A stretch of 64,000 nt of DNA from Betaproteobacteria bacterium (GTDB lineage: Bacteria; Pseudomonadota; Gammaproteobacteria; Burkholderiales; SG8-39), in NCBI GenBank assembly GCA_052386675.1, contig JBQTJX010000004.1:71330-135329 (forward strand), read 5' to 3'. The notes under the pieces are model-generated. The model saw nothing but the letters and a program-made list of their open reading frames with translations. It was not told where the DNA came from and made no database searches. This document shows, piece after piece, positions 19,198-36,849 of this stretch; positions within the stretch are counted from its first letter, which is position 1; each line of letters begins with the position of its first letter. Both the position numbers and the translations under genes were made by a program.

Positions 19198-20001
19198 ATG
19201 ACGCCCACGCGCGCGCCCATCCGCAGTACCTCGGCCGTTGACTACCAGAACGTCCCCCGGCCCGTCGCGGCCATGGCACGCGACCTGCCTTCGGACCACG
19301 AGATTGACTGGCACGCGCACCCTCGCTTCCAGGTGATTTACGCCTCCGAGGGCGTGATGACTGTGGATACCCGAGACGAAACCTGGGTCGTGCCGCCAAT
19401 GCGCGCGGTGTGGATGCCGCCCCGCGTACCCCACCGCGTGCGCGCCTCCGGCCACGTGAAGATGCGCACGCTCTACATCCAGCCCGAAGCCGCCACGCGC
19501 ATGCCGGACGCGTGCCACGTCCTCACGGTGACGCCGCTGCTGCGCGAGCTGATCCAGCGCGCGACCGAGGTCCCGGTCCAGTACGACGAGGACGGCGCCG
19601 ACGGGCGTGTCATGCGGCTGGTGCTGGACGAACTGGCGAAGCTCGCCCGCCTGCCGTACAACCTGCCCATGCCCCGCGCCGAGCCCCTTTCCCGGGTCTG
19701 CGCGGAATTGCTCGACCAGCCGGGCGCTGCGCCCACCCGCGAAGCGGTCGCCGCGCGGCACGGCATGAGCGGGCGCACGCTGGAGCGGCATTTCAAGCGC
19801 GACCTCGGCATGAACTTCGGCGATTGGTGCCGGCGCGCGGCGCTGCTGCGGGCGCTGGCGTGGTTCGCCGAAGGCCGGCCGGTCACGGCAGTGGGGCTTG
19901 ACCTCGGCTATTCCAGCCTGTCCGCGTTCTGCGCCATGTTCAAGCGCGAGACCGGGCGCACGCCGCGCGCATACAGAAGCGAACTGCGCCGGGCGGCCTA
20001 G
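19198..20001 (+). CDS. AraC-family transcriptional regulator (cupin N-domain + HTH)
   Basis: HAHPRFQVIYASEGVM cupin-like N-terminus. C-terminal ...GMSGRTLERHFKRDLGMNFGDW...LGYSSLSAFCAMFKRETGRTP HTH_AraC signature. Divergent from the MFS/CoA-transferase genes. Confidence 0.85.
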   Translation: MTPTRAPIRSTSAVDYQNVPRPVAAMARDLPSDHEIDWHAHPRFQVIYASEGVMTVDTRDETWVVPPMRAVWMPPRVPHRVRASGHVKMRTLYIQPEAATRMPDACHVLTVTPLLRELIQRATEVPVQYDEDGADGRVMRLVLDELAKLARLPYNLPMPRAEPLSRVCAELLDQPGAAPTREAVAARHGMSGRTLERHFKRDLGMNFGDWCRRAALLRALAWFAEGRPVTAVGLDLGYSSLSAFCAMFKRETGRTPRAYRSELRRAA

Positions 20002-20120
20002 CCACACACCTTCACCGGTGACGCGCTCAGGGGTATATTCCGACTGCGCTCCGGGAAGCGCTGGCCGCAAACCGGGCGCAGATCTGGAATCAAGAAGCAG
20101 AACAATTTAAGGGGGGATTC

Positions 20121-21047
20121 ATGCTGATTCGTGCAGTTCTCGCGCTCCTGTTCTTCGCCGGCCTGACCATTGGTGGCGCCATCGCCCAGCCCTTCAACGA
20201 GGGCTACCGCAAGTGCGAGAAGTGCCACGAGGCGGAGGTCGACGTCTGGAAGAAAACCAGGCATTTCAAGGGCTTCCAGGAGATCCACAAGAGCGACAAG
20301 GCGAAGAAGATCCTCGCCGCAGCGGGTGGCGCCACCAGCATGCGCGCCAACGCGAACTGCGTGATGTGCCACTTCACCGAAACCAAGGCCTCGGCCGCGG
20401 GCAAGCCCCAGGTGTCCTCCGGGCCGTCCTGCGAAAGCTGCCACGGTCCGTCCTCGGACTGGCGCGACGTCCACAATTTCTACGGCGACGGCATCGACGA
20501 CCCGAAAAAGGAACCGGCGGCGAAGCGCGACAAGCGCCATGCCGATGCCCGCAAGGCCGGGATGATCTGGTCCTTCATGACCTATGACATCGCCGCGAAT
20601 TGCATGGAGTGCCACGGCCTGGCGAATCCGAAGCTGAAGCCGGACGTGCTGGCGAAGATGCTCGATGCGGGACACCCCGGCGAGCCCGAATTCGAGCTGG
20701 TCGCCCATTCCCAGGGCTCGGTCCGCCATCGCTACTACCCGCCGAACGTCACCACCAACGCCGAGATGACCCCGGCAGAGCTGTCCCGCCTTTATGTCAT
20801 CGGCCAGGCTGCCAAGCTGGTGTCGGCAACCGCCGCCGGTGCCGGCGGCAGCGCGCCATTCACCGCGATGCAGAAGAAGCGCGCGCAGGACGCGCGCGCG
20901 GCGCTGCAGCCGGTGGCCGACGTGCCGGAAGTGAAGGCGGTGCTGGACAAGCCCAGCGCGGACGCGGGACGCAAGCTCGCCGAAGCGCTCAAGGGCAAGG
21001 ACCTGTCGGCGAAGGTGAAGCTCCCGGCCAAGAGCAGCTACAAGTAA
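20121..21047 (+). CDS. Secreted tetrahaem cytochrome c
   Basis: Signal peptide MLIRAVLALLFFAGLTIGGAIAQ. Four CxxCH motifs (CEKCH, CVMCH, CESCH, CMECH). GGGGGA SD. Confidence 0.8.
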   Translation: MLIRAVLALLFFAGLTIGGAIAQPFNEGYRKCEKCHEAEVDVWKKTRHFKGFQEIHKSDKAKKILAAAGGATSMRANANCVMCHFTETKASAAGKPQVSSGPSCESCHGPSSDWRDVHNFYGDGIDDPKKEPAAKRDKRHADARKAGMIWSFMTYDIAANCMECHGLANPKLKPDVLAKMLDAGHPGEPEFELVAHSQGSVRHRYYPPNVTTNAEMTPAELSRLYVIGQAAKLVSATAAGAGGSAPFTAMQKKRAQDARAALQPVADVPEVKAVLDKPSADAGRKLAEALKGKDLSAKVKLPAKSSYK

Positions 21048-21071
21048 TCCGGCGGCCGGGCGGGTCGCGGC

Positions 21072-22793
21072 ATGAGCGAGCTCCAGGTCCTGCAGCGCCC
21101 GAAGCGCTGGGATACGCCTTTTGACGGCGCGATGTCCGAGCAGCATGTCGACGAACTGCTCGCGCGCCCCGAGTTCGCGACCATCGACGCCAGCAAGTTC
21201 CCGGCCTCGGCGCCGTTGCGTGGCATCGTGCGCAACGACTGCCGCATCGTGCACTTCCAGCCCGGCGACATCCTGGTGCGCGACGGCGATTACGGCAATT
21301 CCGCGTTCCTTGTCCTCTCCGGCACGGTGCGGGTGGTCCTGCCCCCTGGCCTGCCGCAGCACCTGCTCGGGCGCTCGGTCGAGGCCAAGACTTCCGCGCT
21401 GGACTCCCTCCTGCAGTTGTTCCGCCAGTCGAAGACGCCCGAGACCCGTGACACGTCGCGCTACCACGCCGGCGAGTCGCGCGGGGCCAGCGAGCAGCAC
21501 CATTCGCTGCTCGATCCGGACGGCATCGGCCAGCTGTTCGGTGCCGGCGTCGATCCGCGGGCGGACAAGCGCCGCGTACCCCAGCTCGCGGCAACGTGGA
21601 AGACCGCGATCCTGCCGCCGGGCACGCTGTTCGGGGAAATCGCCGCGCTTGGCAGGGTGCAGCGATCGGCCACCGTGTATGCCGAATCGGAATGCACTGC
21701 GCTCGAGATGCGCTGGCAGGCGTTGCGCGACATCAAGAACCGCGACGAGACCTGGCGCACGAAGATCGAACAGAGCTACCGCGACAACCAGCTGCGCATC
21801 CACCTGGCCGAGCACCCGCTGCTCGCCGGGCTTGACCCGAAGTCGCTGCAAAAACTGGCCGCCGCCACGCTGTTCGAAACCTACGGCTCGTTCGAGTGGT
21901 ACCTGGAATTCAAGCGCGGCAAGGGCAGCGAGCGGCCGGCGCCTCCGATCGAACCCGCGGTCGCGCAGCAGGGCGACTACCCGGATGGCCTGCTGCTGGT
22001 GACCGGCGGCTTTGGCCGCGTCTCCATGCAGCTCGGCCAGGGCTCGCGCACCCTGACCTACCTGCGTAACGGCGATCACTACGGCCTGGACGAGCTGTAC
22101 GAGGCCTGGAAGAGCGGCCACGACTGCCCCTACGAGACCAGCCTGACGGCGCTGGGCTACCTGCACGTGCTCCGGATTCCCTACTCCGCTCTTGCGGAAC
22201 TGGTGTTCCCGAAGCTGCGCCCGCCCGCGGCGCGCCTGATTGACGCCTCGTCGCGGCCGATCGCGCAGGACGCCTTCCTCGAGTGGGCGGTCGAGGAGCG
22301 CTACATCAACGGCACGCGCACCATGGTCATCGACCTCGAGGCCTGCGTGCGCTGCGACGACTGCGTGCGCGCCTGCGCGGACACGCACGGCGGCAATCCG
22401 CGCTTCGTGCGCGCCGGCAACACCTTCGGCAAGTGGCTGGTGGCGAACGCGTGCATGCACTGCGTCGACCCGGTGTGCATGATCGGCTGCCCGACAGGCG
22501 CGATCCACCGCACCGTGCAGGGCGGCGCGGTGGTGATCAATGACCTCACCTGCATCGGCTGCGGCACCTGCGCCAACTCCTGCCCGTACGACAACATCCG
22601 CCTGGTGCCGATCCGCGAGCTGGACGGCCGCGCGCTGCTCGACCCGGCATCCCAGGAGCCGATCCTCAAGGCCACCAAGTGCGACCTGTGCTTCTCCCTG
22701 CCCACCGGCCCTTCATGCGAGCGTGCCTGCCCGCACGGGGCGCTGCGCCGCGCCGACCTTCAGTCGCTGGTGGCGCAGGCGGCGGAGCTCTAG
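21072..22793 (+). CDS. Tandem cyclic-nucleotide-binding domains fused to an NrfC/HybA-like four-cluster Fe-S domain
   Basis: cNMP phosphate-binding-cassette-like FGEIAALGRVQRSATVYA, then a second degenerate cNMP domain. This is followed by CVRCDDCVRAC, CMHCVDPVCMIGCP, CIGCGTCANSCP and CDLC...CERACP. Confidence 0.8.
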   Translation: MSELQVLQRPKRWDTPFDGAMSEQHVDELLARPEFATIDASKFPASAPLRGIVRNDCRIVHFQPGDILVRDGDYGNSAFLVLSGTVRVVLPPGLPQHLLGRSVEAKTSALDSLLQLFRQSKTPETRDTSRYHAGESRGASEQHHSLLDPDGIGQLFGAGVDPRADKRRVPQLAATWKTAILPPGTLFGEIAALGRVQRSATVYAESECTALEMRWQALRDIKNRDETWRTKIEQSYRDNQLRIHLAEHPLLAGLDPKSLQKLAAATLFETYGSFEWYLEFKRGKGSERPAPPIEPAVAQQGDYPDGLLLVTGGFGRVSMQLGQGSRTLTYLRNGDHYGLDELYEAWKSGHDCPYETSLTALGYLHVLRIPYSALAELVFPKLRPPAARLIDASSRPIAQDAFLEWAVEERYINGTRTMVIDLEACVRCDDCVRACADTHGGNPRFVRAGNTFGKWLVANACMHCVDPVCMIGCPTGAIHRTVQGGAVVINDLTCIGCGTCANSCPYDNIRLVPIRELDGRALLDPASQEPILKATKCDLCFSLPTGPSCERACPHGALRRADLQSLVAQAAEL

Positions 22794-22800
22794 GCCCGGC

Positions 22801-23673
22801 ATGCGCGAGACGCTTCGGCTGGCGTCGGAACTGTGGCGCGACGCCCTTGCCTACGCGCCGGCGCGCCCGGCCCGCGGCCTGTTGACGGCGTGGTTCGCGG
22901 CGATCGCGGCCTGGATCCTGGTCAGCCTCCTTGCCTGGCACACCGAGCGCAGCCTGGGCAACGCCTCGCTGGTGACCGGCTATGCACTGATGGCGGCGAT
23001 GCTGTTCCTGGGCAGCTTCGGCCTGCGCAAGCGCGTCCTGGTGCTGCCGCTGGGCACGGCGCGCGCCTGGATGCGGGCGCACCTGGTCGTCAGTGCGATT
23101 TGCGTGCCGCTGTACTTCCAGCACGCCGGCAGCCTCTGGCCGGGCGGCGTCTACGAGCAGGCGCTCGCCCTGGCGTTCTACGGCGTGGCGCTCACCGGGC
23201 TCGCGGGCTACGTCCTCGAGCGCCTGCTGCCCAAGCGTCTCACCGACCTCGACAGCGAGATCGTCTACGAGCGCATTCCGCACGAGATCGCCGAGCTGCG
23301 CGAGCGCGCCGAGGCGGTGGTGGTACAGGCGATGCAGCAACTGGGTTCGGACACGCTGGGCCGCTACTACCACGAGTCGCTGGACTGGTATTTCTGGAAG
23401 CCGCGTTTCCTGGTCAGCCACCTGCTGGGCGGCCGGCGCGCAGCGCGCTGGATCGGTGGCCACATCTCCGCACTCGCCCGCTACCTCAGCGAGCCGGAGC
23501 GCGCCTACCTCGACCAGATCGAGGCGCTGGCAACACGCAAAAGCCACCTGGACGCCCACTTGGTCATGCAGGGCGCGCTGAAGTACTGGCTGTTCCTGCA
23601 CGTCCCGCTGGCCGCTGTCCTGATCCTGCTGGTGCTCTGGCACCTGCTCCTGGTGAACATCTACGCACTGTGA
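22801..23673 (+). CDS. Integral membrane protein (4 N-terminal TM, helical soluble region, C-terminal TM), unknown function
   Basis: 290 aa. Hydrophobic segments carry His residues (AWHTE, RAHLVVSA, YFQH, FLHVP, LWHLL). 7 nt after the preceding gene. Confidence 0.55.
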   Translation: MRETLRLASELWRDALAYAPARPARGLLTAWFAAIAAWILVSLLAWHTERSLGNASLVTGYALMAAMLFLGSFGLRKRVLVLPLGTARAWMRAHLVVSAICVPLYFQHAGSLWPGGVYEQALALAFYGVALTGLAGYVLERLLPKRLTDLDSEIVYERIPHEIAELRERAEAVVVQAMQQLGSDTLGRYYHESLDWYFWKPRFLVSHLLGGRRAARWIGGHISALARYLSEPERAYLDQIEALATRKSHLDAHLVMQGALKYWLFLHVPLAAVLILLVLWHLLLVNIYAL

Positions 23674-23697
23674 CGCCATGCCGAACCTGAGAGACGC

Positions 23698-25527
23698 ATG
23701 AAGGGACCGCGCAGCTTCCGCCACGAGACCATTGCGTACGAGCGGCCGATGCTGCCGTACCGCTGCGGCCGCGGCGCGATGTGGCGCAAGCCGTGCTGGC
23801 AGGGTCCCGACGCCGGCGGCGGCTGCCAGGGGCGCTTCGAGTGCGCGCCGGTGCGCATCGGGGACCGCTGGGAATGCCGCCGGCCCAAGCTTGCCGGCGG
23901 CAAGTGCGACCGCGGGCCGCTGCCCGACGGCAGCTGCGCGCACAGCCATCCGCCATGCGTGCCGCGCCGCAGCCTGCGCTCGCTGCGCGGCCACTTTTCC
24001 GCGCTGCTGGCGATCGCGCTGGGCATTGTCCTGCTTGTCGGCCTGGATCCCACCGCGCCCTCGATGGTCAACCCCCGCGCGATCGACGCCGGCGAGCTCA
24101 CCAGCGTGCACGGCGGATTCACGCGCGAGCGCGGCTGCGCGGCCTGCCACGCGAGCCACGAGAAGGACGCGCTCGGCTGGGTCGCGGCCGCGTTCCGCGG
24201 CAACGATCCCAGCGCCCGTTGCCTGGACTGCCACGATTTCCCGGGCAGCGCGATGCGCGCGCACAATGCCGCTCCGGACAAGGGCGCGGCGTTCGGCGAA
24301 GTGCCCTGCGCGCGCTGCCACACCGAGCACAAGGGCGCGGCGGCGAAGATCGCCCAGGTTCCCGACTTCGTCTGCGCCAACTGCCACCAGAAGCGGTTCG
24401 ACAGCTTCTCCTCCGGGCACACGCCCTTCCCGGCCAACTATCCGTTCGACCGTCCCGGGGCGATCCACTTCGACCACAGCCGCCACATCGGCAAGTACTT
24501 CGGCGACCCGAAGGTCGCGCGCACCTCCAAGGCCGCGGCGGCGTTCGCCGCGGATGCGCAGAAGAAATGCACTGCCTGCCACAGCGTCGAAGGCGCGACG
24601 CGCGAGGTGAAGCCCAAGCCCTATTCCGAGATCTGCGCCACCTGCCATGAGGGCCAGGTCGGCAAGGCCGAGTTCGTGGTGCTTGAACAGGAGCGCCTGA
24701 CACCGGCTGCGTCCTTCCTGCTGGGCATGGAACTGGAGGGCGACGAGGAGGCCGCCACGCGCCGCCTGGGCAAGCTCTGGGAGGCGATGGCGCGCGGCGG
24801 CACGGAGGCGCTGGTGGAACTGGCCGCCGGCGGCGGCGATGCAACCCGGCGCAAGTCCTCCGAAGCGCTGTTCGCCGGCCTGGCCGGCCAGACCGCGCGC
24901 GAGACCGGGGCGGCCTGGGCCGCGCGCCGCGACCTGCCGGATCGTGGCGCAAAGGACGGGGTCGCTGGCTGGATCGCAGGCAACACCTCGGACGACAAAC
25001 CGGCGCTTCATTACCGCGCCGCCCACGGCGACCCGGTGCTGAAGGCCTGGATCGAGGCCCTGCGGACAGCCGCGGCGGAGGGCAAGGACAAGGACCGGCA
25101 GCAGATCGCCGCAGCCGCGCTCGACCAGGTACTCGATCCGGATGGCCCGGGCGCCTGCGGCAAGTGCCACGGCGCCTCGGTGAGGCTGGCCAAGCCCGGG
25201 GGACTGGAGGCGGCCTGGAAACGCGCCGGCAAGGCGGCCTCGCCCCATGACCGCTACTCCCACGCCCCGCACCTTGCGCTTGTGGACCCGGATGCCGGCT
25301 GCCGTGCGTGCCACGAGCTGAACCCGAGCTCGGGCTACGCGAAATACTTCGCATCCAAGGCGCCCAAACCCGAGGCCTACCAGAGCAACTTCCTTGGGAT
25401 TCGCGCCGAAGCTTGCGTAGAATGCCATCGTGAAGGACAGGTGAATGCTGGCTGCCAGGTCTGCCATGCCTATCACCTGCCGCATCGCTTCAATCTCGGT
25501 TTCCGAACAAGGGGAGCAAGCAAATGA
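23698..25527 (+). CDS. Membrane-anchored decahaem cytochrome c with N-terminal Cys-rich region
   Basis: Ten CxxCH motifs (CAACH, CLDCH, CARCH, CANCH, CTACH, CATCH, CGKCH, CRACH, CVECH, CQVCH). One TM helix (ALLAIALGIVLLVGL) preceded by about 95 aa containing 8 Cys. Confidence 0.8.
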   Translation: MKGPRSFRHETIAYERPMLPYRCGRGAMWRKPCWQGPDAGGGCQGRFECAPVRIGDRWECRRPKLAGGKCDRGPLPDGSCAHSHPPCVPRRSLRSLRGHFSALLAIALGIVLLVGLDPTAPSMVNPRAIDAGELTSVHGGFTRERGCAACHASHEKDALGWVAAAFRGNDPSARCLDCHDFPGSAMRAHNAAPDKGAAFGEVPCARCHTEHKGAAAKIAQVPDFVCANCHQKRFDSFSSGHTPFPANYPFDRPGAIHFDHSRHIGKYFGDPKVARTSKAAAAFAADAQKKCTACHSVEGATREVKPKPYSEICATCHEGQVGKAEFVVLEQERLTPAASFLLGMELEGDEEAATRRLGKLWEAMARGGTEALVELAAGGGDATRRKSSEALFAGLAGQTARETGAAWAARRDLPDRGAKDGVAGWIAGNTSDDKPALHYRAAHGDPVLKAWIEALRTAAAEGKDKDRQQIAAAALDQVLDPDGPGACGKCHGASVRLAKPGGLEAAWKRAGKAASPHDRYSHAPHLALVDPDAGCRACHELNPSSGYAKYFASKAPKPEAYQSNFLGIRAEACVECHREGQVNAGCQVCHAYHLPHRFNLGFRTRGASK

Positions 25528-27359
25528 CCGAGGAGTTCAGCCAGCAGCGGGACATGGTCCGCAACCCGTCGCGCAGGCGCCGCTGGACGGCCCTCGCGGC
25601 GATCCTGGTGGCCTGCGTGCTGTCGGCGCCGGGCGAGTCCGGCGCGCAGCGCAAGCCCCGCGGCGCGGCACCGGCGGAGGCCCCTGCCGCAGCCCCGGCC
25701 GGCGAAGCGCACGCCCGGGTCCTGAATGAAGAGCAGTACCCCAGCGCCGCGCGCTGCGGCGAGTGCCACAAGCAGATCTACGACGAATGGCGGGTCTCCA
25801 ACCACGCCTACGCCGGAATGTCGCCGATGTTCCACAAGTTCGAGCAGAAGATCACCGAGCTCGCGCCCTCGATCGGCACGTTCTGCGTGCGCTGCCACAT
25901 GGGCGTGGGCACCACGCAGGGCGAATCGCGCGACCTGCCGCTGTGGAAGCGCAGCCAGGTGTCGCGCGAAGGCGTGACCTGCATCAGCTGCCATCGCGTC
26001 CAGGACGAGTACGCCAAGGCGAACGGCGAGCGCCGCATCGTCCCGGGCTCCATCTTCGCGCCGGTCTACGGGCCGGGCGGCGGCGAGGGTGTCGCCGAGG
26101 CGGTGAAAAATCCGGGCCGCTTCAATATCGCCACCAACGACAAGGCGCGGGGCACGAAGATCCACACCGCCGGGGTCAAGTTCGAGCAGATCGACAAGGC
26201 CGAGTTCTGCGTCTCCTGCCACCAGGTCGCGGTGAACCTGGGCATCAAGCTGGAGGTGGTCTGGGACCAGTACCGTTCGTCTCCCGCGCGCAAGCAGGGC
26301 ATCACCTGCCAGGACTGCCACATGGGCAAGGTTCCCGGCAAGGCGGAGGGCTACGCCACCGGTCCCGCAGCCGACGGCATGCGCAACGGCCGCACGCTCA
26401 ATCCGACGCGCAAGCGCAGCAACCATTCGTTCTACGGGCCCGGCTACCCGATCACCCACCCCGGCATCTTCCCGCACCACAATACCGAGGGCACCGAGGA
26501 GTGGACGATCGAGCGCTGGCTCAAGTTCGACTACCGCGCGAAGTGGGGCAGCGACGACTTTGAGCAGGAAGTCGAGTCCGGCAAGCGCAAGCTGCGCTTC
26601 CCCGAGGAATGGGCCGACGCCGAGGACCGCAAGAAAGCCTGGTCGGTGGTGGAGGAGAACCTGCGCCTGCTGGAGGTCAAGCGCGAACAGCGCAAGCAGG
26701 TGATGGAGAATGGCTCGCGCATCGACGGCCCGTTCTTCACCGAGGCGCGCGCCGGCCGGCCGCTCAGCTTTGCCTACCGGGTGACCAACACCGATCCCGG
26801 CCACAACCTGCCCTCGGGGTCCCTGGGCGCGCAGCCCGAGATCTGGCTCAACGTGGCGCTGATCGGCCCCGACGGCAAGCGGCTCTGGGAGAGCGGCCAC
26901 CTCGACAGCATCGGTGACATGGCCGACCTGCATTCGACCGACGTGCGCGCCGGCAAGCTACCGCTCGACCGGCAGCTGTTCAACCTGCAGACCAAGTTCC
27001 TCACCACCAACGTGAAGGGCACCGACCGCGAGATGTACCTGCCGGTCAACTTCGACATCGACCAGTTGCCGTTCCTGCGGCCACCCGGCCAGCCGGTGTC
27101 GGTCATGAACCACCCGCCCTTCGTGCGCATGGAATCGCGCTCGCTGCCGCCGCTGGGCAGCCGCATGGCGAATTACACCGTGCCGGCCGAACTGGTCGCG
27201 AAGCCCGGCAAGTACCGCCTCGCGGTGCGCCTGCGCAGCCGCGCCGAGCCGATCTACTTCATGCGCTTCGTCGGCGCCACCAGCGACATGGAGCGCGCGA
27301 TGAACGAATGGATGCTCGACATCCATCCGTACACGGTCGAATTCCAGGTGAAGGAGTGA
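25524..27359 (+). CDS. Pentahaem cytochrome c with ~340-aa haem-free C-terminal domain
   Basis: ATGA overlap with the upstream gene. Arg-rich signal or anchor (SRRRRWTALAAILVACVLSA). CGECH, CVRCH, CISCH, CVSCH and CQDCH all lie in the first ~290 aa. Confidence 0.8.
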   Translation: MTEEFSQQRDMVRNPSRRRRWTALAAILVACVLSAPGESGAQRKPRGAAPAEAPAAAPAGEAHARVLNEEQYPSAARCGECHKQIYDEWRVSNHAYAGMSPMFHKFEQKITELAPSIGTFCVRCHMGVGTTQGESRDLPLWKRSQVSREGVTCISCHRVQDEYAKANGERRIVPGSIFAPVYGPGGGEGVAEAVKNPGRFNIATNDKARGTKIHTAGVKFEQIDKAEFCVSCHQVAVNLGIKLEVVWDQYRSSPARKQGITCQDCHMGKVPGKAEGYATGPAADGMRNGRTLNPTRKRSNHSFYGPGYPITHPGIFPHHNTEGTEEWTIERWLKFDYRAKWGSDDFEQEVESGKRKLRFPEEWADAEDRKKAWSVVEENLRLLEVKREQRKQVMENGSRIDGPFFTEARAGRPLSFAYRVTNTDPGHNLPSGSLGAQPEIWLNVALIGPDGKRLWESGHLDSIGDMADLHSTDVRAGKLPLDRQLFNLQTKFLTTNVKGTDREMYLPVNFDIDQLPFLRPPGQPVSVMNHPPFVRMESRSLPPLGSRMANYTVPAELVAKPGKYRLAVRLRSRAEPIYFMRFVGATSDMERAMNEWMLDIHPYTVEFQVKE

Positions 27360-27364
27360 CGCCG

Positions 27365-28879
27365 ATGTCTGCGACCGGAGTTCACAGGAAGGCGCGCCTC
27401 CTTGCGACGCTCGCCCTTGCGCTGGCGGCCATCCCGGCGCCGGCGCTCGCCGACGACAAGGGCGGCCCCCGGCAGATGGCCCCGGACGCAGTCGTGGTGC
27501 CGCACAAGGCGGAGACCTTCGGCCCCGACCCGTCCTACGAGCAAAAGCCCTACAGCGTCGAGGACCAGTTGCGCATCTATGGCGGCAAGTCCGCGGTGCG
27601 CAACCCTCGCCCGCTGATCGAGTTGGGCCGGCCGATCTACGACAGCGGTCCGCTGAGCGCGCCGGGCACCGGCCTGGGCCGCAAGAACCCCACCGACCAC
27701 GCGTTCTCGATTTACGGCGACTGGCGCACCGCCATCGCCCGCAACAACAATGGTGCCGTCCGCCAGAGCGTGCTCGCCACCCGGCTCAACCTGGACGTGG
27801 ACTGGAAGATCACGGGCACCGAGCGCGTGCATGCCTTCTTCCGCCCGCTGGACCACGACGGCAGGTTCACCGGCTGCGTGCGCGAGAACGGCGGCGGCCA
27901 CTGCGAGAACCGGCTCGACGTGAAGGCCGAGGCGCTGTTCTTCGAGGGCGACCTGGGCGCGCTGATGTCCGGCTGGACCGACCGCTACCAGTCCTTCGAC
28001 CTGCCCTTCACGTTCGGCAAGATCCCGCTGCTGTTCCAGAACGGCGTCTGGCTGGAGGACGCCTTCGGCGGCTTTGCGTTCACCATCCCGGCGCGCAACA
28101 GCCCGTTGCTCGACATCTCGAACATGGACGTCACGTTCTTCGCCGGCGTCGACAACGTCGACACCCCCGGCATCGTCGACCGTGCCGGGCTCGCGACCAA
28201 GGCAAACCGCCTGTTCGGCGCCACCGCGTTCATCGAAGCCAACGAGGGCTACTGGGAACTCGGCCTGGCGCGCGTCAAGCCCAAGGACGACTTCGCCAAC
28301 CAGGGCTACAACAACGCGGCGATCGCGTTCACCCGGCGCTACGGCGGCTGGCTGTCGAATTCCGTGCGCCTGATCCACAACTTCGGCCAGCGCCCCGTTG
28401 CCGGCGTGCGCCGCAACGCGAACGGCTCGCTGCTGCTCATCGAGAATTCGCTGGTGACCCACAAGCCGCTGACGCTGGTGCCCTACCTGAACCTGTTCTA
28501 CGGCAACGACCGCCCGCAGTCCGTGGCGCGCGCCGTGGACGCCGGCGGCATCCTGAAGAACACCGGCATCAACTTCGAGACCGACGGCCTGACCGGATTC
28601 CCCAAGCTGAACGACACCGCCAACAACACCTACGGCGGCGCGCTCGGCATCCAGTACCTGTTCGACCTTAGCCAGCAGGTCGTGGCCGAGATCGCGATGG
28701 TGCGTCCGCACGGGGACGCCGCCAACCGCGGCGTCCCGGGCCGCGAACTCGCGCTCGGACTGCGCTACCAGCTCAACCTTGACCGGGCGTGGATCTTCCG
28801 CGCCGACGCCATCATCGCTGACCGCGACGGCGCGCGCGACCTGAGCGGCGTGAGGTTCGAACTGCGGCGCAAGTTCTAG
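27365..28879 (+). CDS. Putative outer-membrane beta-barrel (porin-like) protein
   Basis: Signal peptide ...LALAAIPAPALADD. 504 aa, rich in alternating aromatic/Gly segments. C-terminal ...GVRFELRRKF ends in Phe, as is typical of OMPs. Confidence 0.55.
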   Translation: MSATGVHRKARLLATLALALAAIPAPALADDKGGPRQMAPDAVVVPHKAETFGPDPSYEQKPYSVEDQLRIYGGKSAVRNPRPLIELGRPIYDSGPLSAPGTGLGRKNPTDHAFSIYGDWRTAIARNNNGAVRQSVLATRLNLDVDWKITGTERVHAFFRPLDHDGRFTGCVRENGGGHCENRLDVKAEALFFEGDLGALMSGWTDRYQSFDLPFTFGKIPLLFQNGVWLEDAFGGFAFTIPARNSPLLDISNMDVTFFAGVDNVDTPGIVDRAGLATKANRLFGATAFIEANEGYWELGLARVKPKDDFANQGYNNAAIAFTRRYGGWLSNSVRLIHNFGQRPVAGVRRNANGSLLLIENSLVTHKPLTLVPYLNLFYGNDRPQSVARAVDAGGILKNTGINFETDGLTGFPKLNDTANNTYGGALGIQYLFDLSQQVVAEIAMVRPHGDAANRGVPGRELALGLRYQLNLDRAWIFRADAIIADRDGARDLSGVRFELRRKF

Positions 28880-28888
28880 CCCGGCGCG

Positions 28889-30148
28889 ATGGCCATCCTG
28901 GTCCACTCCATCGCCCTGGCCGCCGCCGCGCTCGGCGCGGCGTACCTCGCCCTGCTCGCGTACGGCGCCTTCATGCGCCAGGCGCGGCTCGCGGAACTGC
29001 ACCAGGACGAGCGCGCGGTGTTCGTGGAGCGATTGCATCAGGTCAGCGCGCCAGTCTCCCGGCTCGCGAGCCAGCAGGGTCCGGCCTGGTCCGGGTTCCG
29101 GAAATTCCGCATCGACGGCAAGGTGCTCGAGGCCGACAGCATCTGCTCCTTCTATCTGGTGCCGCACGACGGCCGGCCGCTGCCGCCGTTCTATCCGGGC
29201 CAGTACCTCACCTTCCGGGTGCCGATTCCAGGCCAGACCCGCGAAGTCACGCGCTGCTACTCGCTGTCCGACAGTCCCGACCACACCGACTACTACCGCG
29301 TGACGATCAAGCGCATCCCGCCGCCGCCGTCGCAACCCGAGGCGCCGGGCGGACTGGTATCCGGGCACTTCCACGAGCGGCTGCGGGTCGGCGACTTCCT
29401 GGACGTGAAGGCGCCAAGCGGCCACTTCCACCTCGACGTCGAACACCGCGGTCCGGTGGTGCTGATCGGCGGCGGCATCGGCATCACTCCGGTCCTCAGC
29501 ATGCTCGGGCACCTCGCCGCGACCCAGGCCGGCCGCGAAGCATGGCTGTTCTACGGCGTGCGCAACAGCAGCGAGCATGTGATGCAGGATTTGCTCAAGG
29601 AGATCGCCGCCGCGCACCGCAACCTGCACGTGGTGGTGTGCTACTCCGATCCCTTGCCGGGGGACCGCCAGGGCGAGCACTACGACGTCGCCGAGCGGGT
29701 CGGCGTGGACCTGTTCAAGCGCATGCTGAAGGTGAACAACTTCGACTTCTACATCTGCGGTCCGCCGCCGATGATGCAGTCGATCACCGAAGGGCTGGCC
29801 GCATGGGGCGTGCCCGAGGCGCGCGTGCATTTCGAGGCTTTCGGGCCGGCATCGGTCAAGAAGGGCGCGCAGGCGGCGGCACCTTCCGTGGCGGCCGGCC
29901 TGCAGGTGACCTTCACGCGCTCCAATCGCACCCTGGTGTGGCCGGGGGCGGGCTCGCTGCTGGAGTTCGCGGAAGCCAACGGCATCCAGATTGACTCCGG
30001 CTGCCGTGCGGGGAACTGCGGCACCTGCGTCACCGCCATCCGCGAAGGCCAGGTGGACTACCTCAGCCCCCCTGGCGCCGAGATCGAGAAGGGTTCCTGC
30101 CTCGCCTGCATCGCGACGCCCAAGAGCGCGCTGAGCGTGGACGCCTAG
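28889..30148 (+). CDS. Membrane-anchored ferredoxin-NAD(P)+ reductase-like flavoprotein with C-terminal plant-type 2Fe-2S domain
   Basis: N-terminal TM helix. RCYSLS FAD motif, LIGGGIGITP NAD(P) motif, and CRAGNCGTCVT...C 2Fe-2S motif. Confidence 0.85.
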   Translation: MAILVHSIALAAAALGAAYLALLAYGAFMRQARLAELHQDERAVFVERLHQVSAPVSRLASQQGPAWSGFRKFRIDGKVLEADSICSFYLVPHDGRPLPPFYPGQYLTFRVPIPGQTREVTRCYSLSDSPDHTDYYRVTIKRIPPPPSQPEAPGGLVSGHFHERLRVGDFLDVKAPSGHFHLDVEHRGPVVLIGGGIGITPVLSMLGHLAATQAGREAWLFYGVRNSSEHVMQDLLKEIAAAHRNLHVVVCYSDPLPGDRQGEHYDVAERVGVDLFKRMLKVNNFDFYICGPPPMMQSITEGLAAWGVPEARVHFEAFGPASVKKGAQAAAPSVAAGLQVTFTRSNRTLVWPGAGSLLEFAEANGIQIDSGCRAGNCGTCVTAIREGQVDYLSPPGAEIEKGSCLACIATPKSALSVDA

Positions 30149-30155
30149 GCGCGAC

Positions 30156-31208
30156 ATGGCCAGACTGAGCAACGCGCAGGGACTGCTGTTCGTCGAGATC
30201 TTCCAGGAGGAGATCGCCGCGGACGGCCCCGCCGTGACGACCCTGAAGGACTGGTTCGGCCACCAGCAGGTCGGGCAGGCAAAGGCAATGATCAGCGACG
30301 CAGTCAGCGCGAACAGGGGCGTGGTCACCCATACCGTGGGAGACGCGACTCTCAGCAGCTTCCCGGATGCACGCCACGCGGTCGCCGCTGCGATCGCGAT
30401 CCGCAACAAGCTTTTCCGTACCCGAAAGGCCTCGTCGACCGCCATCGTGCGGATGCGCGCCGGAATCTCCTACGGCGCGGTCCGCGTGATCGCCGGCAAG
30501 GTCTCCGGTGACGCGGTCACCGCGGCCGGCCTGCTCATGGAGAAGGCCGGCCCGGATGAGGTGCTTGCCGACCAGGCGCTTGCCGATGCGGCGTCCGGCG
30601 CGGAAGCGATCACCTTCGAGTCGCGCGGCGCAATCGACGGCATCCAGGCGCTCTGCGTCGTCGGCGGGGATGCGGCGCCGAAGACCGCGCCCACGATTCC
30701 AGGGGCGCTGCCCGCGACCCCGGCCGCGCTGGCGCGCGCGCCCGCCCCGCCTCCGCCTGCTGCACCTGCTGCACCTGCTGCACCTGCTGCACCTGCTGCG
30801 CCTGCCGCTCCCGCGGCGGCCGTCGCGCCCGCCGCACCTGCCGCATCCGATGCCCCTGGCGCGAAAATGACCAAAGCGGTCGTGATCATCGTGGGTGGCG
30901 CGGAGCTTCGATTCGATCCCGCGGTCGGCACCGTGTCCATCGGCCGCGGCCCGGAGAACCACATCAACGTGCCCTTGCGCCATGTGTCGCGCAAGCACGC
31001 GAGGATATTCTGGCCGGGCGGCGGCATGCCGTTCATCGCCAACCTGAGCCCGAACGGCACCTGCATGCGCCCTGCGGGCTCGAACACAGAAACACGCTTC
31101 ACCGACCAGGTGCCCCTGCTCGCCAGCGGCGATCTCGCGCTTTGCGGTTCCTTCGGCCAGGTGTCGACGCCGGACGAGATCATCCGTTTCAGTCTTGTCG
31201 ATCCCTAG
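30156..31208 (+). CDS. Class III cyclase-homology domain (probably degenerate) - Pro/Ala repeat linker - FHA domain protein
   Basis: LLFVEIF / TVGDATLSSF / RAGISYGAV...GDAVTAAG resembles a CHD with substituted catalytic positions. The C-terminal SIGRGPENHINVPLRHVSRKHARIFW...NLSPNGT is FHA-like. Confidence 0.65.
   Translation: MARLSNAQGLLFVEIFQEEIAADGPAVTTLKDWFGHQQVGQAKAMISDAVSANRGVVTHTVGDATLSSFPDARHAVAAAIAIRNKLFRTRKASSTAIVRMRAGISYGAVRVIAGKVSGDAVTAAGLLMEKAGPDEVLADQALADAASGAEAITFESRGAIDGIQALCVVGGDAAPKTAPTIPGALPATPAALARAPAPPPPAAPAAPAAPAAPAAPAAPAAAVAPAAPAASDAPGAKMTKAVVIIVGGAELRFDPAVGTVSIGRGPENHINVPLRHVSRKHARIFWPGGGMPFIANLSPNGTCMRPAGSNTETRFTDQVPLLASGDLALCGSFGQVSTPDEIIRFSLVDP
30756..30809 (+). repeat. 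9-bp in-frame tandem repeat (CCTGCTGCA)x4 perfect + 2 degenerate, encoding (PAA)n
   Basis: Units at 30756, 30765, 30774 and 30783 are identical. Units at 30792 and 30801 diverge by 1 and 3 nt. Confidence 0.9.
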
Positions 31209-31848
31209 CGGCAGCGGACAGCCAGCGGGGCTCGATGCGCGCGGGCTCGCCTGCGAGCGCGGCGAGCGGCGCCTGTTTTCGGATCTCTCGCTTGCGCTCG
31301 AGCCGGGTGGCCTGGCGCGCCTGCTTGGACCCAACGGCAGCGGCAAGACGAGCCTGCTGCGCATCCTCGCCGGCCTGACCCGCCCTGCCGAGGGCGAAGT
31401 GCGCTGGCGCGGCGAGCGCATCGGCGAACTCTCGGAGGCGTACGGCCATGAGCTTGCCTATGTCGGCCACTCGCCTGCGCTCAAGGACGAACTGACCGTG
31501 GCCGAGAACCTCGCATTCGCGGCGCACCTGGCGGGCCTGGCGACCAGCGGCGCGCAGCTCGAGGCCGCGCTCGAGCGCTTCGGCATGGCTTCGCGTGCCG
31601 CACTTCCCGCGCGCGTGCTCTCGCAGGGGCAGAAGCGCCGCGCCGCGCTGGCGCGCCTGGCGCTGGCCGGCGCGCCGGTACTGTGGCTGCTGGATGAGCC
31701 ATTCGTGGCGCTGGACAAGGAAGGCATCGCCTGCGTACGCGAACTGGCCGAGGCGCACCTCGCGCGTGGCGGCATGCTGGTGCTGACCTCGCACCAGGAG
31801 GTGCCCATAGCCGCGCGCGCAACGCAGACGGTGGTCCTGGGCGCATGA
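31195..31848 (+). CDS. ccmA: Haem exporter ATP-binding protein CcmA
   Basis: LDARGLACERGERRLF...GPNGSGKTSLLRILAGL aligns with E. coli CcmA. TTG start; no ATG or GTG is available. Confidence 0.9.
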   Translation: MSIPSGSGQPAGLDARGLACERGERRLFSDLSLALEPGGLARLLGPNGSGKTSLLRILAGLTRPAEGEVRWRGERIGELSEAYGHELAYVGHSPALKDELTVAENLAFAAHLAGLATSGAQLEAALERFGMASRAALPARVLSQGQKRRAALARLALAGAPVLWLLDEPFVALDKEGIACVRELAEAHLARGGMLVLTSHQEVPIAARATQTVVLGA

Positions 31849-31855
31849 GCCGCGC

Positions 31856-32524
31856 ATGAGCGCTGCCTTCGCCGCCGTCCTGCGCCGCGACCTGCTGGTC
31901 GCGCTGCGCCGCAGGGGCGATGCGCTCAACGTCCTCATCTTCTTCGTCATCGTCGCGAGCCTGTTTCCCCTGGGCACCGGCGCCGAACCCGGCCAGCTGC
32001 GCGCCATGGCCGCGGGCGTGATCTGGGTGGGGGCGCTGCTCGCGGCGCTGCTGTCGCTGCCGCGCCTGTTCGCGGCCGATCTCGCCGACGGCACCCTGGA
32101 GCAGATGCTGGTCTCCGCGCAGCCGCTGCCGGCGGTGGTGATGGGGAAAGTCGCCGCCCACTGGCTGACCACGGGGCTGCCGCTGGCGCTCATCGCCCCG
32201 GTACTCGGGCTGCAGTACGGGTTGCCCGGCGACGCCCAGCTGGTGCTCCTCGTGGCGGTCCTGCTCGGCACGCCGGTGCTGAGCCTCATCGGCGCGGCGG
32301 GCGCCGCCCTGACGCTGGGGGTGCGCGGCGCCGGCGTGCTCACCGGCCTGCTGGTGCTGCCGTTGTTCGTCCCGGCCCTCGTGTTCGGCGCCGGCGCGGT
32401 CACCGCCTCGCTGTCGGGCCTCGCGCCGGGTGCGCATCTTTCGCTGCTTGGCGCGCTACTTGCGGTATCCTTTTTATTCGGCCTCTGGGCAGCCTGCGCG
32501 GCGCTACGCGTCGCCCTCGATTGA
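31856..32524 (+). CDS. ccmB: Haem exporter permease CcmB
   Basis: 222-aa six-TM protein in the canonical ccm position. Confidence 0.9.
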   Translation: MSAAFAAVLRRDLLVALRRRGDALNVLIFFVIVASLFPLGTGAEPGQLRAMAAGVIWVGALLAALLSLPRLFAADLADGTLEQMLVSAQPLPAVVMGKVAAHWLTTGLPLALIAPVLGLQYGLPGDAQLVLLVAVLLGTPVLSLIGAAGAALTLGVRGAGVLTGLLVLPLFVPALVFGAGAVTASLSGLAPGAHLSLLGALLAVSFLFGLWAACAALRVALD

Positions 32525-32538
32525 GTTTCTCTTCCGCG

Positions 32539-33279
32539 ATGTTCTCTAAGCTGTATTCCCTCGCCTCTCCGCAGGCCTTCTATCCCGTTGCCGGGAGGCT
32601 GATCCCGTGGTTCGGCTGGGCCGCAGCGCTGCTCGCGGCCGCGGGACTCTGGATCGCGTTCTTCGTCGCCCCGACCGACGCCACGCAAGGCGAGTCGTAC
32701 CGCATCATCTTCATCCACGTCCCGGCGGCCTGGATGTCCATGTTCATCTACCTGGTCATGGCGGGCTGGGCGGGGCTGGGGCTGGTGCTCAATACGCGCC
32801 TGTCCGGCATGATGGCCTCGGCGCTCGCGCCGACCGGCGCGATGTTCACCTTCGTCGCCCTGTGGACCGGCGCCCTGTGGGGCCGGCCGACCTGGGGCAC
32901 CTACTGGGTGTGGGATGCACGCCTGACCTCGGAACTTATCCTGCTGTTCCTGTATCTAGGATTCATGGCCCTGAAAGAAGCGATCGACGACCCGCAGCGC
33001 GCCGACCGCGCCGGGGCGATCCTGGCGCTGGTGGGCGTGGTGAACATCCCCATCATCTACTTTTCCGTCCAGTGGTGGAACACGCTGCACCAGGGCGCCT
33101 CGGTGAGCCTGACGCGCGCCCCGTCCATGGCCGCGACCATGCTGGCCGGGATGCTGGTGATGGTGTTCGCGGCCTGGATGTATGCGATCGCCGCGTCACT
33201 GGCGCGGGCGCGGGCGATCATCCTGGAGCGCGAGCGGGGACGCGACATGGCGTGGGTGCAACGGATGGCCAAGGCATGA
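32539..33279 (+). CDS. ccmC: Haem exporter / haem lyase component CcmC
   Basis: [15 protein letters not shown]...[15 protein letters not shown]...[14 protein letters not shown] (WWD motif) aligns with E. coli CcmC from ATG 32539. Confidence 0.9.
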
Positions 33280-33419
33280 ACTGGGGCAGCGCGGCGGAAT
33301 TCCTCTCCATGGGCGGCTACGGCGCCTTCGTGTGGGGCTCCTATGGCGTGACGGCGCTGTGCGTGTGCCTGGAGGTCTGGCTGCTGGCGCGGCGCAACCG
33401 CAGGGCCGGGGCCGCATGA
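33276..33419 (+). CDS. ccmD: Haem exporter small subunit CcmD
   Basis: 47-aa single-TM peptide, ATGA-coupled on both sides, in the canonical position. Confidence 0.7.
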
Positions 33420-33910
33420 AGCCCGGCATGAAGCCCCGTCACCGCCGCCTCGTCGCCGTCGCCTGCGGCCTGGCGCTCCTCGCCGTCGCCGCGGCGCTGG
33501 TGCTGAACGCGTTCCAGTCCAACCTGGTGTTCTTCTTCAGCCCGACCCAGGTGGCGGCGAAGGAAGCGCCGCTGGACAAGACCTTCCGCCTCGGCGGCAT
33601 GGTGCTGGACGGCAGCCTCAAGCGCCGTGCCGACGGCCTCACCGTTGACTTCGTGGTCACCGACACCGCGAAGGACATCCCGGTGACCTACACCGGCATC
33701 CTTCCGGACCTGTTCAAGGAAGGCAAGGGCGTGGTGACGCAGGGGCGCCTCGGGCCCGACGGCGTGTTCCGCGCCTCCGAGGTGCTGGCCAAGCATGACG
33801 AGAACTACATGCCGCCCGAGGCGGCCGAGGCGTTGAAGAAGGCACACGACCAAGGTGCCGCCAAGGTCCGCGCCGAGCGCGCGTCGAAATCGCTGGTGAC
33901 CGGAAAGTGA
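33416..33910 (+). CDS. ccmE: Haem chaperone CcmE
   Basis: N-terminal anchor, ...FRLGGMV... OB fold, and [12 protein letters not shown] haem-binding His motif. Confidence 0.9.
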
Positions 33911-33917
33911 TCGACGC

Positions 33918-36406: not shown

Positions 36407-36849
36407 TCGGGCGCGCCCTGGCCGCTCTTGCCCTCGCGCTGTGCCTGTCGGCGCTGGCCCAGGAAACGCCCGAGGAGGCCCGGCTGCGCGTCCTGTCGGA
36501 GAAGCTGCGTTGCCTGGTGTGCCAGAACCAGACCCTGGCGGATTCCAGCGCCGAGCTGGCCGGGGACCTGCGTCGCGAGCTGCGCGAGCAGGTGAAGGCC
36601 GGCCGCAGCGACGGCGAAATCCTGGATTTCATGGTCGCGCGCTATGGCGACTTCGTGCTCTACGAGCCGCGGTTCAAATCAAGCACGGTGCTGCTCTGGG
36701 TGGGCCCGTTCGCATTGCTCGCGCTCGCGCTCGTCACCGTGGCCGTGATGGCGCGACGCCGCCGCAGCGCCGTCGCGGAGTCGGACCTGGGCGCCGAGGA
36801 GCGCCGCCTGGTCGCGCAGGCGCTGGGCAGGGAAGAGGACCGCCAGTGA
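36403..36849 (+). CDS. ccmH: Cytochrome c biogenesis protein CcmH
   Basis: Signal peptide, LRCLVCQNQTLADS motif, C-terminal TM. Confidence 0.9.
   Translation: MIGRALAALALALCLSALAQETPEEARLRVLSEKLRCLVCQNQTLADSSAELAGDLRRELREQVKAGRSDGEILDFMVARYGDFVLYEPRFKSSTVLLWVGPFALLALALVTVAVMARRRRSAVAESDLGAEERRLVAQALGREEDRQ

Follow-up and report, generated by a model that had tools for sequence, protein, structure and literature searches.

The eight-gene cluster g1-g8 studied here occupies positions 20121-31208 of a 64,000-nucleotide stretch of a Betaproteobacterial genome (assembly GCA_052386675.1, contig JBQTJX010000004.1, positions 71,330 to 135,329; hereafter the window) and has a published counterpart, ptdABCDEFG. 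That gene set was described in 2023 from Alphaproteobacteria of oxygen-deficient zones (UBA11136) and from other marine metagenome-assembled genomes (MAGs) (bioRxiv 10.1101/2023.11.21.568154). The published parts are a pentahaem cytochrome with a beta-sandwich (PtdA), the porin PtdB, a flavin adenine dinucleotide (FAD)/NAD(P) oxidoreductase (PtdC), a tetrahaem cytochrome (PtdD), a cyclic nucleotide monophosphate (cNMP)-binding 4Fe-4S protein (PtdE), a ferric-reductase-like membrane protein (PtdF) and a decahaem cytochrome (PtdG) (bioRxiv 10.1101/2023.11.21.568154). Its authors regarded ptd as a putative porin-cytochrome complex whose function "remains completely unknown" and reported its transcription in a major ocean oxygen-deficient zone (bioRxiv 10.1101/2023.11.21.568154). 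Our literature search found no later paper using the ptd name. A second cluster of similar outline is ExtHIJKLMNOPQS of Geobacter sulfurreducens, which includes the porin ExtI, the pentahaem protein ExtKL (MccSep), the 12-haem ExtM, the 10-haem ExtN, the Rieske protein ExtO, the cytochrome b ExtP and the 4-haem ExtS. ExtKL/MccSep is a periplasmic polysulfide reductase encoded beside ExtI. Reduction of Fe(III) citrate does not require ExtI, for which a role as a selective channel has been suggested.

Seven of the eight window genes correspond one-to-one to ptdABCDEFG, in the order ptdD-E-F-G-A-B-C, and the assignment follows the published domain content of each protein. PtdA has five CxxCH motifs, a C-terminal beta-sandwich in its AlphaFold2 model and kinship to cytochrome c552 of Thermochromatium tepidum, as published; PtdB has a porin fold and adjoins PtdA; and PtdC, PtdD, PtdE and PtdG agree in Pfam and NCBIfam domains and in haem counts. 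The assignment is softest for PtdF, which carries four invariant His in two helices; some of its homologues match DUF4405 or Ferric_reduct weakly, whereas the window protein matches neither. Planctomycetota and Verrucomicrobiota loci (L045, L051, L065 and L075) encode these proteins in the published A-B-C-D-E-F-G order, and the same seven genes are present in loci from the Saanich Inlet and Eastern Tropical North Pacific sample series that the ptd paper used. The accessions given in Table S7 of that paper, for example MBT5131319 and Ga0066848_100031354, were absent from the cluster members read. Contrary to what the initial annotation implied, the cluster is thus not undescribed, and its porin-cytochrome interpretation is already that of the ptd authors (bioRxiv 10.1101/2023.11.21.568154). 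The published and present systems share all seven proteins with equal domain content, and they share the Alpha- and Gammaproteobacteria, Planctomycetota, Verrucomicrobiota and Acidobacteriota as hosts. They differ in the D-E-F-G-A-B-C order of the window, in an eighth gene encoding a pseudo-cyclase with an FHA domain, and in the cytochrome c maturation (ccm) genes that follow directly. The window host is a high-GC Betaproteobacterium with kin loci in groundwater, lakes and mines, whereas the ptd paper reports saline habitats. PtdE was published with two 4Fe-4S clusters, whereas we find four cluster motifs, and PtdG was described as periplasmic, whereas here it has a transmembrane anchor and a Cys-rich N-terminal domain that is predicted to be cytoplasmic. 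What departs from the published description is the eight-gene Beta/Gamma variant, the ccm junction and the non-saline occurrence; the present analysis adds a second architecture (type II), links to cyclases and to FHA domains, sets of probable ligands and the analogy with Ext/MccSep.

All eight reading frames lie on the + strand, with a strong coding signal from GC content at third codon positions in a window of ~68% GC, and successive genes from g1 to g8 are spaced by 24, 7, 24, -4, 5, 9 and 7 nucleotides (nt). The CxxCH motifs number 4 in g1, 10 in g4 and 5 in g5, 19 in total, and all 38 of their cysteines are invariant in alignments of 44-65 homologues; by our own estimate from typical Cys and His frequencies, chance would give ~0.01 such motifs per 1,500 residues. 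The packed co-directional array and the 19 motifs of the initial annotation both stand. Its domain predictions hold for all eight proteins, except that the cyclase-homology domain of g8 is without the canonical catalytic residues, and the parts it distributed over cytoplasm, inner membrane, periplasm and outer membrane are retained as predicted locations within one conserved unit.

The system is widespread. In a genome scan with one genome per species, 233 stretches contained a relative, spread over at least five phyla, with Beta-, Gamma- and Alphaproteobacteria, Verrucomicrobiota, Planctomycetota and Acidobacteriota among the hosts; the best 80 of these 233 matching stretches were examined. 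When the eight proteins were compared with 84 loci by tblastn, PtdA adjoined PtdB in every locus, and all seven ptd genes were present, among unrelated neighbours, in 32 of the 42 loci with enough flank. The PtdA-PtdB pair is the invariant core, and it occurs without other ptd genes in L069 and L070. The expectation that the genes would form a co-conserved unit, with the barrel linked to a cytochrome gene, is borne out by these loci, the constant partner being the pentahaem gene. PtdA is the best-conserved protein (57-84% identity, compared with 26-61% for PtdG). Among 1.8 billion cluster representatives, a search with a profile returned PtdB relatives in 859 clusters at 50% identity, and at 90% clustering the families comprise at least 2,800 PtdB and at least 3,108 PtdA sequences, nearly all annotated as hypothetical protein or generic cytochrome. 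No PtdA homologue was found in a plasmid collection. The carriers are nearly all MAGs from groundwater, lakes, a mine and the sea, and they belong mostly to aerobic or heterotrophic aquatic lineages. Cultured carriers listed in Table S7 of the ptd paper include Tistlia consotensis, Roseibium aggregatum and Sulfidibacter corallicola (bioRxiv 10.1101/2023.11.21.568154). In one isolate, Marinobacter sp. CHS3-4 (L069), the core pair is flanked by two caspase-domain (Peptidase_C14) proteins, one with WD40 repeats (6096-8018 and 11604-14363 of that locus), and nearby genes encode a formate-dehydrogenase-like molybdoenzyme and a protein with GGDEF.

The terminal part of the system is formed by PtdA and PtdB. 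PtdA (g5, 25524-27359) is a secreted pentahaem cytochrome and a proposed terminal reductase, with a haem-free region at about residues 300-611 that ends in the beta-sandwich. This region is dense in invariant polar residues, and the motif GHNLPSGSLGAQPE at 426-439 is almost wholly invariant. The only conserved Cys of PtdA are the ten of its five invariant CxxCH motifs. Its haem domain matches T. tepidum c552 (5ze8), the closest solved relative, with a profile E value of 4e-9. The leader is of the signal peptidase I type, no conserved lipobox was seen in PtdA or PtdD, and the PtdA reading frame contains no in-frame UGA.

PtdB (g6, 27365-28879) is an outer-membrane beta-barrel of ~18 strands, preceded on the periplasmic side by ~80 conserved residues that form an N-terminal extension. 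A signal peptide and a C-terminal Phe are visible, and an AlphaFold2 model built with 38 homologues is a beta-barrel with a predicted local distance difference test (pLDDT) score of 76 and a predicted template modelling score of 0.71. In a Foldseek comparison the top-ranking structures for this model were MOMP, OprD/Occ and AlgE, all porins of 18 strands (E = 1e-13 to 1e-9). By sequence PtdB has no Pfam match (E <= 0.1), no PDB match with either the single sequence or the profile, and no haem motif; an exact-sequence look-up of the window protein returned nothing. The barrel is unusually conserved (mean column identity 61%), and its invariant residues from D55 to P96 fall in a low-confidence, disordered part of the monomer model, which suggests that this segment is a partner-binding extension. 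Many homologues (P0338-P0444, for example P0409, P0442, P0376 and P0397) carry 100-800 extra N-terminal residues. In those read, these long extensions are mostly low-complexity and rich in Pro, Gln and Ser, and some start with a hydrophobic anchor, so that they might serve as a tether across the periplasm. Fusions of PtdA to PtdB among the long relatives (600-1255 residues) were considered and rejected, as the extra parts were without CxxCH in seven of the seven read.

Two further cytochromes lead towards this pair. PtdD (g1, 20121-21047) is a secreted tetrahaem cytochrome of the c554 type (Pfam Cytochrome_C554, E = 1e-13) with a visible signal peptide and four CxxCH motifs that are invariant in 44 homologues; we propose it as a periplasmic shuttle. 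PtdG (g4, 23698-25527) combines an N-terminal eight-Cys domain, one transmembrane helix and a periplasmic haem domain whose ten CxxCH motifs are invariant in 48 homologues. The single helix spans residues 98-116 and is preceded by an Arg-rich stretch, and by the positive-inside rule the Cys-rich domain is predicted to lie in the cytoplasm. That domain (23698-23990) consists of the tandem units Cx9Cx9Cx5C and Cx9Cx9Cx6C, whose eight Cys are at least 90% conserved in the 48 homologues and which have no family match. In clusters of the second architecture described below, an FHA domain takes the place of these four-Cys units.

The proposed input side of the system is encoded by ptdC, ptdE and ptdF. 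PtdC (g7, 28889-30148) is a membrane-anchored NAD(P)H flavoprotein with an Hmp-type FAD/NAD module and a C-terminal plant-type 2Fe-2S domain (Pfam FAD_binding_6, NAD_binding_1 and Fer2). It matches the flavohaemoprotein FNR module of NCBIfam (E = 2e-74), has an N-terminal transmembrane helix at residues 2-20, and its C372, C377, C380 and C407 are invariant in homologues. PtdE (g2, 21072-22793) is a cytoplasmic protein, with no signal or Tat motif in its sequence, in which two CRP-type cNMP-binding domains (Pfam cNMP_binding, E = 2e-23; three matching stretches) precede a C-terminal NrfC/DmsB-like module matching 4Fe-4S dicluster and Fer4 families. Because its Cys motifs at 425, 461, 494 and 537 are four complete motifs with 16 conserved Cys (15 invariant, C549 at 98%), we read four [4Fe-4S] clusters rather than two. 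The first cNMP domain retains the phosphate-binding cassette of the CRP/PKA type (F-G-E...R-[ST]-A), with G188 in 45 of 45 homologues, E189 in 44 of 45 and R198 in 45 of 45; the second domain is without the Arg. Since the first cassette is canonical, cyclic AMP (cAMP) or cyclic GMP (cGMP) is expected to gate flow through PtdE.

PtdF (g3, 22801-23673) is an inner-membrane protein and a proposed di-haem b transmembrane electron carrier. Its invariant His pairs, H94/H108 and H267/H281, are each 14 residues apart in a predicted helix (30-47 homologues), the arrangement of the ferric-reductase-domain (NOX/FRE/MsrQ) superfamily, in which two pairs with a spacing of 12-14 residues lie in two transmembrane helices, and the set would be enough for two b haems, with haem binding putative. 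A conserved loop of ~125 residues separates the fourth and last helices. Within the family, 12 of 30 members weakly match DUF4405 and 4 of 30 match Ferric_reduct; PDB searches with the single sequence and the profile gave nothing meaningful.

The eighth gene, g8 (30156-31208), is a lineage-specific addition to ptd that encodes a degenerate cyclase-homology domain, a Pro/Ala linker and an FHA domain (Pfam E = 7e-8). Absent from the published set, it follows ptdC in 13 of the 13 Beta/Gamma loci that reach far enough and in none of the others. Its family comprises 64 proteins, and the two members for which the surroundings were retrieved each stand at the end of a ptd cluster; g8 is the last cluster gene in all contexts read, and it was seen only inside ptd clusters. 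Over its N-terminal half, g8 resembles Ma1120, a class III cyclase (PDB 4wp8; E about 1e-5). Relative to Ma1120, Lys is replaced by His, Asn by Ala and Arg by Leu, and the first metal-binding Asp is Glu or variable; these positions are unconserved across 31 members, and the residue set of class III adenylyl/guanylyl cyclases is not retained. Because the Asn, the Arg and the first metal-binding Asp are absent and unconserved in the family, g8 is read as an adaptor and not an enzyme, probably a non-catalytic pseudo-cyclase/FHA protein. An active cyclase feeding PtdE was therefore rejected on catalytic-residue grounds. In several Burkholderiales loci (L007, L009-L014, at about 13800-15800), a TagH-like protein with FHA and T6SS_FHA_C domains directly follows g8, which may be mere shared synteny of close relatives. 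In L003, a VWA-FHA protein lies upstream of ptdD. The window also encodes, 23 kb downstream of g8, a Ser/Thr protein kinase with a dCache_1 sensor (54367-56208, + strand), a possible phosphorylation partner of g8; a conserved linkage of such a kinase to ptd was not seen in other loci.

The initial annotation's link to cyclic nucleotides is real and recurrent, appearing in the PtdE cassette, in a gene fusion and in neighbouring cyclases. The fusion belongs to the type II architecture found, among others, in L060, L073, L078, L058 (a Ferrovibrio MAG) and L081 (1974-12740 in L060, 8107-19295 in L078 and 6596-16237 in L058), in which PtdA-PtdB is kept and the rest is rebuilt. Here a single Pyr_redox-2xcNMP-4x[4Fe-4S] fusion protein, 27% identical to PtdE, is accompanied by a distant PtdF-like membrane protein, two c554-like tetrahaem cytochromes and a transmembrane-anchored decahaem cytochrome, which has an N-terminal FHA domain in L078 and L058. 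A CoxMSL-type molybdenum hydroxylase follows the type II cluster in L060. Beyond these, a class III cyclase with a CHASE2 sensor stands beside ptd in 10 loci, nine of them type I and mostly Alphaproteobacterial and one an Acidobacteriota locus with PtdA-PtdB only. In seven (L027, L035, L038, L042, L049, L057 and L062), ptdC is followed by a TolC-like OEP gene (~650 residues) and then by the convergent cyclase gene; the remaining loci are L055, L050 and L070. These cyclases keep the canonical FSDIRGFT, KYMGD and NLASR motifs. A thiamine pyrophosphate enzyme and a metallo-beta-lactamase-fold gene recur upstream in the CHASE2-cyclase loci. Because three independent gene-fusion or neighbourhood signals point the same way, we tie both cNMP and phosphothreonine signalling to the electron-transfer chain.

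Our preferred interpretation, to which we give somewhat less than an even chance, is NAD(P)H-driven electron export to a reductase, PtdA, that is served by the PtdB channel. PtdC would oxidise NAD(P)H at the cytoplasmic face via FAD and 2Fe-2S and would be the entry point. Electrons would then pass along the four [4Fe-4S] clusters of PtdE under cAMP or cGMP gating and cross the inner membrane on two bis-His b haems of PtdF, as in NOX/FRE/MsrQ-type proteins. The membrane-anchored PtdG and then the soluble PtdD would carry them across the periplasm to PtdA docked to PtdB, the end point. There PtdA would reduce a small soluble oxidant arriving through the PtdB channel, and PtdB would not be an insulating sheath around a haem wire. 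At the cytoplasmic face, g8 may couple the chain to Ser/Thr-kinase signalling as a proposed phosphothreonine-dependent regulator. The domain content is observed; the direction of flow and the protein contacts are what we infer, outward flow because a low-potential donor is combined with export along the membrane potential. Independent support for the first steps, from PtdC to PtdE, comes from type II, in which a single protein joins a flavoprotein to the cNMP-FeS module. With NAD(P)H and not quinol as its input, the system would spend reducing power rather than conserve energy, so an assimilatory, detoxifying or redox-balancing role would fit and the tight regulation would be explained. The model for this last step is the ExtI/ExtKL (MccSep) pair of Geobacter. 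An enzyme with its channel is also favoured for PtdA, which is the best-conserved protein, with many invariant polar residues in its haem-free half, an ordinary signal peptide and no conserved lipobox, and for PtdB, which resembles substrate-specific 18-strand channels; the occurrence of the two as a pair without the other ptd genes (L069 and L070) fits as well. If PtdA is catalytic, its chemistry differs from that of MccSep, because the Cys/Sec site of MccSep is absent.

Several observations weigh against electron export to a PtdA reductase. The direction of flow is drawn from domain types and thermodynamics only, and 19 haems leading towards the outer membrane together with a very conserved barrel suit a conduit at least equally well. 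No catalytic haem was identified in PtdA, which has no CxxCK, CX15CH, extra conserved Cys or Sec, and its similarity to MccSep is marginal (E = 0.006). The AlphaFold2 model of PtdA yields the C-terminal beta-sandwich, but its haem domain is poor (pLDDT 64), having been modelled without haems, and Foldseek returned generic beta-sandwich matches only, which are uninformative (TM < 0.2). The window PtdF has no Pfam match, and haem binding by PtdF is putative. The ptd authors themselves call the function "completely unknown" (bioRxiv 10.1101/2023.11.21.568154).

The best-surviving alternative, a serious one although in our estimate rather unlikely, keeps the same inner chain and makes the outer pair a conduit: PtdA, or a loop or hairpin of it, would insert in PtdB and pass electrons to acceptors outside the cell, for example humics, O2, or Fe(III) and Mn(IV) in minerals or chelates. 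The invariable adjacency of cytochrome and barrel is consistent with this, as is the unusual conservation of a barrel whose conserved periplasmic extension could grip PtdA, and a 19-haem chain is long enough for the periplasm. Cyc2 illustrates that a small barrel can work with a haem domain. The unexplained Fe reduction that the ptd authors observed at the depth of ptdAB transcription would also fit (bioRxiv 10.1101/2023.11.21.568154). However, the cluster encodes no lipoprotein or surface cytochrome and PtdB is without a haem motif. At ~18 strands, PtdB matches solute channels, whereas the MtrB barrel of the published MtrAB structure reportedly has 26 strands. No MtrB_PioB match and no match at the MtrA/DmsE level were obtained, and among characterised proteins the one closest to PtdA is a soluble enzyme of the periplasm, whose partner porin is not needed to reduce Fe(III) citrate. 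The trans-envelope porin-cytochrome conduit of the initial annotation therefore stands in part: the conserved unit and the barrel beside a pentahaem cytochrome are there, but the ~18 strands, the missing surface cytochrome and the periplasmic-enzyme relative speak against it.

Electron uptake, which we consider improbable, would reverse the chain, with PtdA oxidising a low-potential donor, periplasmic or external (for example sulfide/polysulfide or Fe(II)), and NAD(P)+ being reduced inward via PtdE and PtdC. FNR-type modules are reversible, and T. tepidum c552 is a low-potential cytochrome linked to sulfur metabolism. Carriers in the oxygen-deficient zone also transcribe sulfur-oxidation genes (bioRxiv 10.1101/2023.11.21.568154). 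Yet inward transfer through a di-haem b protein opposes the membrane potential, donors below about -320 mV would be needed according to standard potentials, an energy-coupling subunit is absent, and the carriers are mostly aerobic or heterotrophic aquatic bacteria. Even less credible, and very improbable in our view, is an ordinary respiratory module: a quinol-linked periplasmic cytochrome network beside an unrelated general porin, with PtdE and g8 as unconnected regulators. In its favour, PtdF might in principle be a cytochrome b that oxidises quinol, as a type II homologue has a weak Ni_hydr_CYTB match and the window PtdF has no family assignment. Against it, the seven genes stay together in at least five phyla, amid unrelated flanking genes; none of the loci read has the barrel, which belongs to no Pfam family, away from PtdA; type II fuses the cNMP-FeS module to a flavoprotein; and g8 occurs only in ptd clusters.

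A bolder form of electron export can be framed, about which we are rather doubtful. Under it, ptd would be a bacterial two-membrane counterpart of the eukaryotic NOX/FRE proteins, a cAMP/cGMP- and phosphothreonine-gated NAD(P)H spender that delivers electrons at or through the outer membrane. Its users would be abundant aerobic and microaerobic bacteria of aquatic habitats, and the external oxidant might, for example, be O2, reduced to superoxide, or Fe(III) or Mn(III/IV), reduced so as to be acquired. The system would be a kind of extracellular electron transfer that is non-respiratory and unrelated to Mtr/Pcc.

Downstream, the cluster runs into a complete operon for cytochrome c maturation. 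The genes ccmABCDEFGH (31195-36849, + strand) were recognised by Pfam ABC_tran, CcmB, Cytochrom_C_asm, CcmE, CcmF_C and CcmH, and the operon, ccmABCDEFGH(I), runs on to about 38087. The start of ccmA overlaps the stop of g8 by 14 nt, and no terminator-like site was found on the + strand from a promoter candidate at 20011-20039 to 34036; the ptd cluster is apparently co-transcribed with these haem-attachment genes. The promoter candidate, a weak sigma-70-like site with 9 of 12 consensus matches on the + strand, lies in the 119-nt gap between an AraC-family gene and ptdD, and the consensus scan gave two such sites in 19 kb where 0.9 were expected. The g8/ccmA junction is shared with L085, L005 and L006, and ccm is not adjacent in most other lineages; L085 repeats the window layout through ccmA-I, MobA and MoeA. 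In L007, L009-L011, L013 and L014, ccmF sits upstream, on the strand opposite to the cluster. The AraC-family regulator directly upstream of ptdD (19198-20001, + strand; Pfam HTH_18 and AraC_binding) is a possible local regulator; as a conserved ptd regulator it was rejected, since no homologue was found beside ptd in the other loci. Rfam scans of the whole window and tRNA scans gave no matches, so no riboswitch or other RNA element appears to be involved.

Other features of the window are recorded here. A redox-rich stretch upstream (4655-16156) encodes a 996-residue molybdopterin oxidoreductase (4655-7645, - strand), a 701-residue poly-ferredoxin (8652-10757, - strand) and FdhD/NarQ (12703-13668, + strand). 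MoeA lies downstream of ptd at 38647-39921, and a chromate transporter is found at 158-1534. The segment 50001-52000 has a GC content of 0.57, compared with about 0.68 elsewhere, and no tRNA or Rfam match lies nearby.

If electrons indeed pass from NAD(P)H to the outer membrane, the ptd system would represent a widespread export of reducing power, under second-messenger control, by aquatic bacteria not regarded as "electroactive", with a bearing on iron, manganese, sulfur or nitrogen cycling. The family is large and is transcribed in a major ocean oxygen-deficient zone. Handles for experiment are offered by the invariant PtdAB pair, by the sets of His and Cys ligands, by the cassette for cNMP and by the cyclase and FHA partners, and the Ext/MccSep precedent favours soluble substrates in screens, not minerals alone.

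Comparison with known systems places ptd apart from the classical conduits. Like MtrCAB, PioAB and MtoAB, it has a multihaem cytochrome gene beside an outer-membrane barrel gene and includes a decahaem cytochrome. It differs in that the decahaem protein is anchored in the inner membrane, no lipoprotein of the MtrC/OmcA type is encoded, and the ~18-strand barrel has no MtrB_PioB match. Against TIGR03508 (MtrA/DmsE; cut-off 192.2), PtdG, PtdA and PtdD scored 26.5, 31.9 and 16.7 bits, respectively, and the score against TIGR03507 (MtrC/OmcA) was 14.5 bits with a cut-off of 209. PtdB does not have the large barrel of MtrB/PioB (26 strands or more), nor any Pfam match at E <= 0.1. Alternative complex III (ActABCDEF), with its NrfD-like membrane subunits (ActC/F) and Tat-exported ActB, does not correspond either, as PtdF has no NrfD-family match and PtdE, with its cytoplasmic cNMP domains, shows neither a signal nor a Tat motif. 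The lack of fit to Mtr/Pio/Mto or to Alternative complex III noted in the initial annotation is thus upheld by profile scores far below cut-off, by the absence of an MtrB_PioB match and by the absence of an NrfD-like subunit.

The likenesses lie elsewhere. With NOX, FRE, STEAP and MsrQ, ptd shares a cytoplasmic NAD(P)H-flavin input and two His pairs in two helices for stacked b haems (putative in PtdF). It differs in that the flavin (PtdC) and haem (PtdF) modules are separate and bridged by the cNMP-gated, four-cluster PtdE, in that the chain runs on via 19 c haems to the outer membrane, and in the weak Pfam support for PtdF. By its layout, the Ext cluster, which was absent from the systems weighed in the initial annotation, is the closest characterised analogue. 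In outline, each combines a pentahaem/Ig-like cytochrome next to a porin-like barrel with a decahaem and a tetrahaem cytochrome, an inner-membrane b-type cytochrome and an Fe-S protein, and a single pentahaem (PHC) family includes ExtKL, T. tepidum c552 and PtdA. The pentahaem cap and Ig-like beta-sandwich stem of MccSep recur in PtdA, whereas the haem-ligating C239 and the catalytic selenocysteine/Cys U325 do not, and PtdA scores 34.6 bits against the NCBIfam ExtKL model NF040886, with a cut-off of 250. The two systems also differ in their input, as electrons enter Ext from quinol through a Rieske/cytochrome b module, whereas entry into ptd is proposed to involve a flavoprotein using NAD(P)H, a 4x[4Fe-4S] protein under cNMP gating and a di-haem b protein. 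Judged by these analogies, the cluster would work most like an Ext-type layout equipped with a NOX/FRE-like input.

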